A DNA stretch of 64,000 nucleotides from contig CAVUWV010000031.1 in assembly GCA_963745075.1 (NCBI GenBank), positions 128,001 to 192,000 of the forward strand. The letters run 5' to 3'. A program made the translations under genes and the position numbers. The notes under the pieces are model-generated. The model did no database searches and had not been told where the DNA came from. It saw only the letters and a list, made by a program, of their open reading frames with translations. This stretch comes from Candidatus Hydrogenedentota bacterium. Lineage in GTDB: Bacteria > Hydrogenedentota > Hydrogenedentia > Hydrogenedentales > SLHB01. Shown here in pieces: positions 23,367 through 26,029 of the stretch (within the stretch, counting starts at the first letter, position 1; every line of letters begins with the position of its first letter).

Positions 23367-24518
23367 CTATTTGATGATGGGGAATTTCAGGACGAACTCG
23401 GCGCCTTCGTACTCGTTCTCACTGAGTACGACTTCGCCATTATGACGCCGCATAATGTTCTTTACCGCGGCCAACCCAAGGCCCGTACCGCCCTTGCCCT
23501 TGGTGGAGTAGAACGTATCGAAGATCTTGGTGCGGTTTTCCTCGGGAATACCCGGGCCCGTGTCTCCGACGGCGACACAAATATAGTCCGGGTCGCGCCA
23601 GGTCCGGATGAGGATCTCCCGGGGCGGGGCCTGGCCATCCATCGCCTGGCAGGCGTTGGTAATCAGATTCAATACGGCTTGCCGCATCAGTACGAAATCC
23701 CCTTCACACAGGGGGATATGCTGTTCGAGTTCGCGATTCACTTTGACCGCCATCTTTTGCATGAGCGGCATACTTACCGTGAGGCACGTTTCCACCACAT
23801 CGTTGATGTTCAGAATGGAGAACCGTTGGGTTTCGTGGCGCAGAAAGTTCATGGCGGACCGAACGATATCCGTGCAGAGACCGATTTGGCCGTGCATCAT
23901 CTGCAAACGGTCGGGAGTCGGCACGACTTCCGGGCGGTTGAGAATCATCTCGAGTTGACCGGTAATCACGGCCAACGGCGTACCCAAATCGTGAAGCATG
24001 CCGGATACAAACCTGCCCAGCGTCTCGAACCGGTTGGCTTCCATGGCCAGTTCTTCCATGCGCCGCCGTTCCAATTCCTTCTCGCGTTTGTCCAGCCCTT
24101 CTTCGACGTGCCGGAGCATGACCTTCGCGTCGAATGGTTTTACGATGTAGGCCAGCGCGCCGTACTCGACGGCGTTCATGGCCGAATCCAGTTCGCCGAA
24201 CCCGGTCAGGATAATTACTTCGGTTTCGGGGAACTTGGTCTTGGTCCAGCGCAATAATTCGACACCGGATTGTTTGGGCATGCGGAGGTCGGTGATTACG
24301 AGATCGACCGGTTCGGATCGCAGCACTTGTTGCGCTTTCGATACATCCTCCGCGATGAGAACTTCATGGTCTGCTTTCAGGAGCATTCGGAGGGCCTGCC
24401 GCGGCCCGTTTTCGTCGTCGACGATCAGAATTCTCCCGCGAATAGCCTGCTTTGAAATCGGTCCCATTTCTCTACCCATCCCCAGCGTTTCCGGAGCCGC
24501 AACCGTTAGGATACCCAT
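23367..24518 (-). CDS. Hybrid receiver-histidine kinase
   Basis: ILIVDDE, DLRMP, KP, then MLHDLGTPL, NLITNA, DTGPG and GTGLGL. Confidence 0.9.
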   Translation of the reverse strand: MGILTVAAPETLGMGREMGPISKQAIRGRILIVDDENGPRQALRMLLKADHEVLIAEDVSKAQQVLRSEPVDLVITDLRMPKQSGVELLRWTKTKFPETEVIILTGFGELDSAMNAVEYGALAYIVKPFDAKVMLRHVEEGLDKREKELERRRMEELAMEANRFETLGRFVSGMLHDLGTPLAVITGQLEMILNRPEVVPTPDRLQMMHGQIGLCTDIVRSAMNFLRHETQRFSILNINDVVETCLTVSMPLMQKMAVKVNRELEQHIPLCEGDFVLMRQAVLNLITNACQAMDGQAPPREILIRTWRDPDYICVAVGDTGPGIPEENRTKIFDTFYSTKGKGGTGLGLAAVKNIMRRHNGEVVLSENEYEGAEFVLKFPIIK

Positions 24519-24558: not shown

Positions 24559-24575
24559 AGCAAGATAGGTGCCAA
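24559..24575 (-). promoter_or_regulatory. sigma54 (-24/-12) promoter of the hybrid kinase gene
   Basis: Minus strand TTGGCACCTATCTTGCT, a full match to TGGCAC-N5-TTGC. Confidence 0.8.
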
Positions 24576-24640: not shown

Positions 24641-24696
24641 TGTACATTTTTGTACAGCAATCACCAAAACACGGATTCCCTGTACATTTTTGTACA
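24641..24696. promoter_or_regulatory. Two identical TGT-N10-ACA palindromic sites (putative enhancer-binding protein UAS)
   Basis: TGTACATTTTTGTACA at 24641-24656 and 24681-24696, upstream of the sigma54 promoter. Confidence 0.7.
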
Positions 24697-24802
24697 AACG
24701 AAATCGCCCGGAAGAAGTATGCATATCGGTGTAAGGGACAGGGAGCTATTACTTTTTGGGGACCACCGGTTTCCGGTTCGGGACCGGCTGCCAAAAAGAG
24801 GC

Positions 24803-24831
24803 TTGCAGTTTACGAAGCGCTGTGGTTAAAT
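24803..24831 (+). promoter_or_regulatory. Putative sigma70 promoter of the structured leader
   Basis: TTGCAG-N17-TTAAAT; shares TGTGGTTAAAT with the ompA-proximal promoter. Confidence 0.45.
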
Positions 24832-24837
24832 AGCGTC

Positions 24838-25126
24838 TTCGCCGTTCCAATGGAGCGGACGAGAAAATGCAAACAAGAGTGTTAGAACGAGAACCGACGG
24901 GAAAACGTGATATGGGCAGCATATTCAAACATGCCGACGCGCAACACGCCGTGAAGCACGGGGTAGCGTGGTGCACCATGTCCACGTTTATTCGTGGCGT
25001 GGCCCGAGTACCCGCCTGCGGTTCTCGTCTCGAGGTGCAGCTATTGACGTAGCGACTTAGAGAAAAAAGCTCAAACAAACCGAGCGCCGCAGGCGAGAAT
25101 CCACCGCCTGCGGCGCTTTTACTTTT
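24838..25126 (+). ncRNA. Candidate structured cis-regulatory leader RNA (attenuator/riboswitch-like)
   Basis: Nested stems 24887-24896/25019-25028 and 24897-24915/24976-24995; alternative pairing 25013-25027/25081-25095; terminator 25083-25120. Confidence 0.5.
25083..25126 (+). terminator. Intrinsic terminator
   Basis: AGCGCCGCAGGCG-N9-CGCCTGCGGCGCT followed by TTTACTTTT. Confidence 0.8.
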
Positions 25127-25328
25127 CGAGTATGCAATCTTTTTTTGGGCGGTTCCGGGTGGTCCGGGGCCGAGTCAATAACCACAAGGAGACGCAGCAT
25201 GAAATTCCGACATCACGACGCCGTGCTCATTACGGTGCCCCGCTGGGGCAAGCGAATGTGCACGAACCGATCCCAATTATCCGGTGATAACGAAAACTCA
25301 AGACGATGTAGAAAAGGAGAGTCCAGTC

Positions 25329-25760
25329 ATGGCACGGTTCAATGCGGAGTTCTGGGAGATTCCAACTCAGTCCGCCTATCTCGATAATATTCCGTCCGAG
25401 CGGGCCTTGTGGTTTGAGACAGATGAAGACCGCGAGCGGCGGTACGCACTGCACGATTTCTTCCGCAGCGTGTTGCCGTTCGTGAAAGACATCATCGATG
25501 CAAAATTGACGGCGCGACAGCGCGAGGTTTTGCGTCTGTATTACTTCTGCAACAAAACGCAGGAGGACATCGCCGCGATGCTGAACTTGTCGCAGTCGAC
25601 GGTCAGCCGGCACCTGTTCGGAACCGTCCGCAATGGGAAGAAGGTCGGCGGGGCACTTCCCAAGCTCCGGCGTGCCATTGAGGAACGGGATCATGTGCCG
25701 ATCCATTCGGCACTGGCCCAGTTGCGGACGCGCTTCGACGAAGCGACGGTCGCTGCATGA
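25329..25760 (+). CDS. Small sigma-70 region 4-like HTH protein
   Basis: AAGGAG RBS; LTARQREVLRLYY...TQEDIAAMLNLSQSTVSRHL; no recognisable sigma region 2. Confidence 0.75.
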   Translation: MARFNAEFWEIPTQSAYLDNIPSERALWFETDEDRERRYALHDFFRSVLPFVKDIIDAKLTARQREVLRLYYFCNKTQEDIAAMLNLSQSTVSRHLFGTVRNGKKVGGALPKLRRAIEERDHVPIHSALAQLRTRFDEATVAA

Positions 25761-25870: not shown

Positions 25871-26029
25871 TTGTAAGCGCCGGGCGCCTTTGATACACTG
25901 GAGTCCGGACACAAAACCGTGTACGGGTGGGGTACCGGGTGCGAGACCCCGGCGCAGGAGCCTTACACGTACAACTGTCAGTGGGTTATCGCTGCCCAAC
26001 TTGACAGCGTGGGGTCTTTGTGGTTAAAT
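25871..26029 (+). promoter_or_regulatory. Tandem sigma70-type promoters upstream of the OmpA-family gene
   Basis: TTGTAA-N17-TACACT (25871-25899) and TTGACA-N17-TTAAAT (26001-26029). Confidence 0.5.

Follow-up and report, generated by a model that had tools for sequence, protein, structure and literature searches.

A predicted two-uORF transcription attenuator upstream of a sigma-region-4-only HTH gene, and its candidate regulon, in Candidatus Hydrogenedentota

Introduction

In classical attenuators (trp, leu, his), four leader segments form the alternative 1:2, 2:3, and 3:4 pairings, and stalling of the ribosome results in read-through. In eukaryotes, a second overlapping uORF gates the general amino-acid regulator ATF4. 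WhiB-family proteins are characterized by Fe-S cysteines and an AT-hook. The existence of a global translation-stress regulator gated by a uORF is established for the actinobacterial WhiB7/WblC, as far as the available text of the sources goes (PMC7157823; 10.1101/2023.06.02.543512). According to that text, the whiB7 leader follows a ribosome-stalling attenuation logic (10.1101/2023.06.02.543512), and WblC, itself under uORF attenuation and autoregulation, switches on genes for aminoacyl-tRNA synthetases, tRNA-processing and amino-acid enzymes, GTPases, and transporters (PMC7157823). The accessible part of another report treats the actinobacterial ilvB and leuS leaders as classical amino-acid operon attenuators (PMC1262725), and for overlapping bacterial uORFs both occlusion and coupling are mentioned in the accessible part of a further one (PMC13285730).

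The leader analyzed here, from an uncultured bacterium of the Candidatus Hydrogenedentota, resembles whiB7/wblC, to the extent that the available texts detail the latter, in that a mixed and poorly conserved uORF, a Rho-independent terminator, and an antiterminator precede a small transcription factor. The resemblance extends to a putative positive-feedback site and to the target classes, which here are assigned by motif, i.e., aminoacyl-tRNA synthetases, tRNA-processing and amino-acid enzymes (asd, aminotransferase), GTPases, and efflux. However, the regulator is an HTH protein made of sigma-70 region 4 only and not a WhiB protein, and its box (TRYGCATR) lies at a variable distance, whereas the WhiB7 site is given in the available text as GAAAWY, AT-rich and 3 bp 5' of the -35 element. 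In addition, unlike whiB7, a second uORF overlaps the regulator start out of frame, the phylum is another one, and the system is known from sequence alone.

Like the classical attenuators, the predicted Hydrogenedentota leader would have a leader peptide, alternative pairings, and read-through upon stalling, but it lacks a single-codon run, its ORF spans 30-60 codons, and it gates a regulator instead of a biosynthetic operon. The out-of-frame uORF crossing the main RBS and start has its parallel in the overlapping bacterial uORFs, as the accessible text describes them (PMC13285730), but here the -1 overlap is fixed across the phylum and follows a transcription attenuator; unlike GCN4/ATF4, it would depend on bacterial SD initiation and not on scanning and reinitiation. 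The system thus appears to work like whiB7/wblC without being a member of it, likely by convergence. The RNA-level mechanism is familiar, and what is likely new is the circuit, that is, a translation-stress regulator with a predicted regulon.

Searches of the open literature returned no paper on such a system in Hydrogenedentes or Poribacteria and none on non-actinobacterial analogues of WhiB7. If the proposal is true, the same logic and overlapping target classes have been joined to an unrelated protein, which would represent a convergent design. It would also provide a function, a site, and a regulon for an unnamed sigma-4-only family of an uncultured phylum, and the frame-locked uORF2 would add a translational layer.

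Materials and Methods

The DNA belongs to a Candidatus Hydrogenedentota bacterium (GCA_963745075.1, contig CAVUWV010000031.1, positions 128,001-192,000 of the forward strand; GTDB lineage Bacteria; Hydrogenedentota; Hydrogenedentia; Hydrogenedentales; SLHB01). This whole 64,000-nt stretch is called the window, and coordinates refer to it unless a contig or leader is named. The leader set was built from 108 loci that yielded 83 unique leaders, then 77 after the removal of four distant non-Hydrogenedentota loci without terminator, one that was too short, and L025, and finally 58 non-redundant leaders (<80% identity). The L025 leader is a variant that keeps the box and the terminator and has no uORF1. 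The box was defined from the HTH leaders alone as AAAAGT[AG][TC]GCATA, with the core T[AG][TC]GCAT[AG] (TRYGCATR).

Results

Anatomy of the leader

An initial annotation had placed here a promoter, three pairing segments, a terminator, a 61-codon ORF, and an HTH gene, and reading the sequence confirmed the position of each of them. The frame-locked uORF2, the upstream box, and the candidate regulon are absent from that annotation. The features are the following:

24712-24725, + strand: conserved box AAGAAGTATGCATA, with its core TATGCATA at 24718-24725; the HTH protein is predicted to bind here
24803-24831, + strand: predicted sigma-70-type promoter TTGCAG-N17-TTAAAT, read from sequence (-35 at 24803-24808, extended TG at 24823-24824, -10 at 24826-24831)
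24887-24896, + strand: segment 1, protector strand just 5' of the uORF1 start, pairing with 25019-25028
24912-25052, + strand: uORF1, 46 codons (61 codons from an in-frame ATG at 24867)
25013-25037, + strand: segment 2, antiterminator strand within the 3' end of uORF1 (25013-25027 in the register of the initial annotation, 25020-25037 in the family register)
25081-25127, + strand: intrinsic terminator, i.e., 5' arm (segment 3), loop, 3' arm, and U tract, with covariation across leaders
25186-25387, + strand: uORF2, 62 codons in the -1 frame, crossing the HTH RBS and start (SD 25186-25191, ATG 25199)
25314-25760, + strand: HTH gene (25329-25760, 143 aa, Pfam Sigma70_r4) with its SD (25314-25319)

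A promoter of the TTG-N16..18-(TG)-TAnnnT type was called by script in 58/58 leaders, each being the best-scoring call and without a null. In the window, a simple scanner did not find a sigma-70 promoter at the leader and placed the terminator hairpin on the minus strand only. No tRNA or tmRNA was detected in the window. The source genome contains no other copy of the terminator core and, thus, this is not a repeated leader class there.

Terminator and competing helices

The terminator is real and strongly covarying. Its core was found by script in 72 of the 83 unique leaders, with six further variants recognized by eye; in the alignment, 91% of the cells are paired and two-sided changes occur at 8 of 12 pairs, a result matched by none of 500 shuffles. 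The 5' arm hardly varies, since a strand located about 50 nt upstream pairs with it as well. In the source genome, segment 3 lies at 25081-25095 and the terminator stem at 25083-25117, followed by a U-rich tail. The leader fold there has a z of -5.55 that 0/200 shuffles reach, and the best duplex between segment 3 and the upstream leader (-27.4 kcal/mol) was reached by 0/1000 shuffles. The perfect 10-bp 1:2 helix was matched by 17/1000.

The calculated duplex energies for the window leader are -32.5 kcal/mol for the terminator, -29.0 for the 2:3 pairing in the register first annotated, -26.8 for the 2:3 pairing in the family register, and -17.7 for 1:2. The 2:3 helix originally drawn is thus possible, but it is one of two registers available in the source genome, and the family-wide one joins 25020-25037 to the arm plus the loop.

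The antiterminator, which extends over the 3' portion of uORF1, is mutually exclusive with the terminator, with a signal that is modest on a plain alignment. Across the 58 leaders, the mean energy of the antiterminator duplex is -24.6 kcal/mol with the cognate partner, compared with -19.8 with non-cognate ones (0/10,000 permutations), and the same arm pairs more weakly with other leader windows (-13.5 to -18.2 kcal/mol). When the variable parts are taken alone, they give -10.4 against -8.0 kcal/mol for shuffles of their own composition, 17/58 loci being individually supported, and the cognate pair beats GC-matched non-cognate ones in 37/57. On a plain MAFFT alignment, 60% is paired, against 39-47% when slid, and 306/500 shuffles equal its count of pairs with two-sided change; this signal is modest because the registers slip by one base. 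Antiterminator covariation is accordingly moderate, and the homologue comparison proposed in the initial annotation gave a strong answer for the terminator and a modest one, on the plain alignment, for the antiterminator.

The 1:2 helix, i.e., the RBS region paired with segment 2, has an energy of -15.6 kcal/mol against -12.5 for shuffles (p<=0.05 individually at 19/58 loci); it beats shuffles and non-cognate pairs, but not windows inside uORF1. In the constrained folding of the partial transcript of the window, the antiterminator reached 0.65-0.90 with a ribosome anywhere from the start to codon 30, 0.51 without ribosome, and 0.0 with the ribosome at codon 36 or at the stop. At equilibrium, the full-length leader RNA always forms the terminator (0.99) and, therefore, the switch must be kinetic. 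These results support the three-way logic of 1:2, 2:3, and terminator, the 1:2 protector being supported in part. By contrast, the nested domain annotated inside the 1:2 helix did not hold up, since the fold of the uORF1 body is not conserved across the order (mean z -1.05; 10/57 below -2).

A translatable leader frame with an unconserved peptide

The leader contains a translatable ORF that ends just before the intrinsic terminator. An SD-led ORF of 30-60 codons with its stop 20-45 nt before the terminator arm is present in 54/58 leaders, compared with 2.7 +/- 1.4 in shuffles, and the uORF1 stops concentrate 21-40 nt 5' of the arm in all 58. The 61-codon frame originally annotated (24867-25052) exists, and its ATG has the better SD score in the source genome, but the start common to congeners is ATG 24912, which gives 46 codons.

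The composition of uORF1 is mixed, with a mean of 16.7 distinct amino acids per 41.6 codons (Ala 12.5%, Arg 11%, Val 8.6%), and no run of regulatory codons for one amino acid was found in the 58 leaders. Trp is present in 49/58 uORF1s, and acidic residues are depleted. The codon CGA makes up 29% of Arg codons, against 4% in the HTH genes and 12% in the genome, and GTA 33% of Val codons (7% and 11.5%, respectively). GTA occurs 59 times in frame versus 18 and 7 off frame, and CGA 69 times versus 58 and 18, the latter being only a slight excess over one off-frame count. Internal indels are not multiples of three in 36/51 cases, and close pairs show no third-position bias (0.146/0.161/0.173). The uORF1 region has no conserved sequence core, and its substitutions are evenly spread over positions. 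Neither uORF1 nor uORF2 matched Pfam as a conserved small protein, codon-position bias being null in the former and weak in the latter. Judging from these comparisons, the peptide sequence of uORF1 is not conserved, and what is kept is translation itself and the codon bias.

A second uORF locked in the -1 frame

Beyond the terminator, the best start preceded by an SD belongs, in 51/58 leaders, to a uORF in the -1 frame that covers the RBS and ATG of the regulator. Across the final 99 nt, this frame is free of stops in 54/56 leaders, versus 20/56 and 18/56 for the other frames, and its CGA/GTA bias resembles that of uORF1. The initial annotation had mentioned a gated small ORF, which does exist, but its start is at 25199 and it runs out of frame across the start of the HTH gene. 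Within this gene, the position of the uORF2 stop varies between leaders, and thus there is no fixed stop-start coupling. We found no structure hiding the HTH RBS, the SD and the sequence around it being unpaired to the same degree (0.46 vs. 0.46). Ribosome traffic on uORF2 may, from this arrangement, damp initiation of the HTH gene. Two variants were observed: L010 has no uORF2, and the uORF2 of L014 is very short.

The HTH protein

The 143-aa HTH protein matches Pfam Sigma70_r4 (E 1e-13) and has no region 2. It resembles region 4 of group-3 sigmas (SigF, WhiG, FliA) and YlxM/UPF0122-like proteins. The candidate role of a stand-alone sigma-70-family factor was ruled out, because, in contrast to group-3 sigmas, region 2 is missing. 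Its best solved sequence relatives are SigF, WhiG-type, and FliA chains (E 4e-5 to 3e-3). Most fold matches of its model belong to sigma region 4, with Z up to 9.6, and the model has an extra beta-hairpin and a C-terminal helix beyond this region; a Foldseek search of the model against PDB gave nothing at E<=0.001. Among 117 sequences of the family there is no invariant cysteine, and Pfam lists Sigma70_r4 and HTH families and no WhiB.

Orthologues (E<=1e-20) are encoded in 33 of the 41 genomes searched, and the sigma-4-only family comprises 587 relatives at E<=1e-15 (in a search covering 76-254 aa). Named records of close relatives are mostly Ca. Hydrogenedentota MAGs, and the distant ones include Poribacteria. 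The viral contigs searched gave one weak 40% partial match only.

A conserved box and its candidate regulon

The box precedes the promoter of the HTH gene in 50/58 leaders (1 and 2 in the controls), mostly 22-107 nt 5' of the -35 element (one call at 9). A phasing close to 10 bp is visible in these distances (p 0.0006 for 10.0 and 0.013 for 10.5), the period having been chosen from ten tried and related leaders not being independent. The strongest and most extended box is the one at the HTH gene itself.

In genomes carrying the HTH gene, the core box was found before asd (21/31), ilvB (14/30), MATE (18/29), rsgA-like (7/12), bacterial-type rtcB (9/17), and gltB (8/31) genes, giving 77/150 leaders for the six families, against 0-4 in reversed and complement controls and a background of 3.4%; six loci were skipped due to short flanks or missing N-termini, four genomes (G001, G004, G038, and G017) were tallied apart, and family counts include discovery sites and congeners. 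The core also precedes aminotransferase (6/10), hisS (4/10), and purA (6/27) genes. There was no signal for ABC-F (3/30), little for proS (3/23), and none before archaeal-type rtcB (0/15), where gene starts are poorly placed. Three genomes with the HTH gene (G019, G024, and G030) have no box in the families tested. Genome-wide over-representation of the box is also absent, with 33 sense matches versus 38 reversed and 41 antisense, and 47 versus 43 and 43.

The core lies 25-130 nt upstream of 47 genes of the source genome. Amino-acid and tRNA genes account for 12 of these 47 versus 5 of 86 control hits (p = 0.002), 20 by-eye picks (sense and control) having been checked against NCBIfam and the rest judged by eye from N-termini. 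The 12 genes are thrS, metG, serS, dusB, ilvB, ilvE, cimA, asd, dapL, argD, argC, and hisG, the hisG call resting on likeness to a Pfam-confirmed relative. By motif conservation, the predicted box regulon comprises genes for aminoacyl-tRNA synthetases, GTPases, and efflux as well as amino-acid and tRNA genes.

Target boxes are concentrated 53-72 nt 5' of start codons, and many have a G-rich element 14-18 nt downstream. In some cases, only 23-48 nt separate the box from the start codon, and the boxes hold no fixed position relative to sigma-70 promoters, which is a poor fit to an activator. The possibility that the box is a sigma-54 -12 element was rejected, since there is no conserved GG at the -24 position.

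Several single observations were made around the boxes. One box precedes a tRNA-Ser GCT (ARAGORN) followed by an HflK/band-7-like gene (L394:250-445; G000 C8:123750-123945). In the rsgA-like leaders L305, L306, and L307, as judged by eye, the box is followed by hairpins and by short uORFs with an SD. Two conserved hypothetical genes without Pfam or NCBIfam match (G000 C10:239723-240688 and C24:347063-347900; L157 and L190) have the box upstream in more than one genome and are candidates for new translation-stress factors. Single matches precede a Csm1/Cas10 gene (L173, G030) and, by eye, an rpoN-like gene (L186, G017). In the assembly of the source genome, the coding sequences of rtcB and of a primary-sigma-like gene are each broken up over different frames (G000 C36:174100-175155 and C15:228909-229587), likely by indel errors.

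Co-occurrence of box and gene

Four genomes that are 97-98% complete, from four families, do not have the HTH gene, and in them the box was found in 1 of 18 target leaders, that one at -378. Counted per genome, a box is present in 1/4 of the gene-less genomes versus 30/33 of those with the gene (p 0.01), and the four occupy at least two places on the MATE tree. In G017, the HTH gene is diverged (L456), the box and the attenuator or terminator are not visible upstream by eye, and target boxes are 0/4. In G010, the gene seemed to be missing only because its leader lies at the end of a contig. Three incomplete genomes, G001 (81% complete), G004 (72%), and G038 (63%), have 10/12 boxes and no HTH gene was found in them, while congeners of each have it; they were set aside as assembly gaps, and if they are counted as gene-less the contrast becomes 77/150 vs. 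11/30.

Among the Poribacteria homologues, a similar AAAAGTGCATCC box is present in 3/4 and a leader uORF in 4/4. In L135, L137, L138, and L139 (Poribacteria plus another bacterium), a 26-33-codon uORF with a strong SD is accompanied by hairpins towards the gene RBS, without the terminator core, and three carry AAAAGTGCATCC. From their layout, leaders of this type are possibly a translational version of the switch.

Discussion

Ribosome-controlled attenuation, the alternative named by the initial annotation, is favoured by the evidence, and we regard it as very probable for this leader. With the ribosome at the end of uORF1, segment 2 would be covered and the terminator would thus form, whereas a ribosome halted anywhere from the start to about codon 30 would block segment 1 but not segment 2, which could then pair with the arm and loop of the terminator, leading to read-through. 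Without a ribosome, the 1:2 helix would compete for segment 2. Translation of uORF2 across the RBS and start of the regulator would damp initiation as long as elongation is fast. The signal read through the mixed uORFs rich in CGA and GTA is most likely a slowdown of translation in general, caused by uncharged tRNA and possibly by antibiotics. The protein would then bind the box both 5' of its own promoter, which would create positive feedback, and close to the promoters of its targets, activating its own gene and those for amino-acid biosynthesis, aminoacyl-tRNA synthetases, efflux, ribosome maturation, and RNA repair. As a whole, this reading, i.e., a two-uORF attenuator that turns ribosome stalling into a sigma-region-4-only protein that activates the box genes, seems to us, on balance, the plausible one.

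Two other explanations concern the leader. The initial annotation preferred a new riboswitch-like RNA class, in which the domain closed by 1:2 would be an aptamer for a metabolite or a protein and the ORF would be incidental. The stable fold in the source genome fits this idea, as do the 1:2 and start-sequestering helices that recur, by eye, in congeners, but the ORF, its RBS, and its fixed stop position in 54/58 leaders do not, and neither fold nor core is conserved across the order. The Rfam 15 search (gathering and E-value thresholds), a check that the annotation had suggested, found no family in either the window or 16 loci related to it, the best sub-threshold match being the terminator hairpin only (24 vs. 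45 bits). We thus consider a riboswitch highly improbable and abandon the ligand domain. Slightly less remote, yet very unlikely, is a sequence-specific arrest peptide that senses one ligand or antibiotic class by means of its C-terminal S-R-P-E/G motif. This motif has a common frame in 37/58 leaders, and the Trp content and scarcity of acidic residues would suit such a peptide; however, the antiterminator nucleotides that encode it are read in three frames (37/13/8 by automatic placement, that is, other frames in 21/58), and neither the indels nor the third positions show constraint on the peptide. The motif arises because its nucleotides pair with the terminator arm.

The remaining explanations accept the attenuator and concern the reader of the box. 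On motif distribution and co-occurrence, the HTH protein is probably the box-binding regulator. Alternatively, another factor could read the box, e.g., as the -35 element of an alternative sigma, the HTH gene being merely a regulon member. The G-rich element and the clustering of boxes 53-72 nt before starts recall sigma-F/B promoters, whose consensus we take as the basis for this likeness, and the boxes in the three incomplete genomes as well as the 53 sigma-region-2 matches of the source genome also point in this direction. Against it, the four near-complete gene-less genomes are devoid of boxes except for one distant site, G017 behaves likewise, no SigB/F/G member passed the cut-off in the source genome, and the strongest box stands at the HTH gene, with a similar one accompanying the Poribacteria homologues; we judge this explanation unlikely. 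Granted binding by the HTH protein, we would expect with good confidence an activator and not a repressor. In the repressor version, which appears to us quite unlikely, uORF2 or another input would invert the logic and the protein would be made when translation is healthy. The near-palindromic core and the boxes down to 23-48 nt from starts would suit an operator over a promoter or start site, and several sigma-70-like promoters were called 5' of boxes. However, uORF1 stalling would favour read-through, repressing amino-acid and tRNA-charging genes upon stalling would be maladaptive, and the own-gene box lies mostly 22-107 nt 5' of the -35 element with its phasing near 10 bp. Since target boxes vary in position and some are very near the start codon, activation rests on the switch logic and the geometry of the own promoter.

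A bolder extension of the activator reading, doubtful at present, is that the free-standing sigma-4 module takes over -35 recognition on RNA polymerase and redirects it to GCATA promoters under the control of the two-uORF sensor. It would then be a bacterial counterpart of GCN4/ATF4 control, independent of WhiB7 and with a variant in Poribacteria.

Neighbouring sequence

The divergent response-regulator/histidine-kinase gene (23367-24518) is preceded by a sigma-54-like -24/-12 element (24560-24575, minus strand) and two TGT-N10-ACA enhancer-like sites (24641-24656 and 24681-24696), assignments for which we assume the sigma-54 consensus. Similar TGTACA repeats occur in several related loci. Downstream, the promoter of an OmpA-family gene (26002-26029) has an extended -10 element, TGGTTAAAT, identical to that of the leader, with a non-canonical second position that is also found in congeners.
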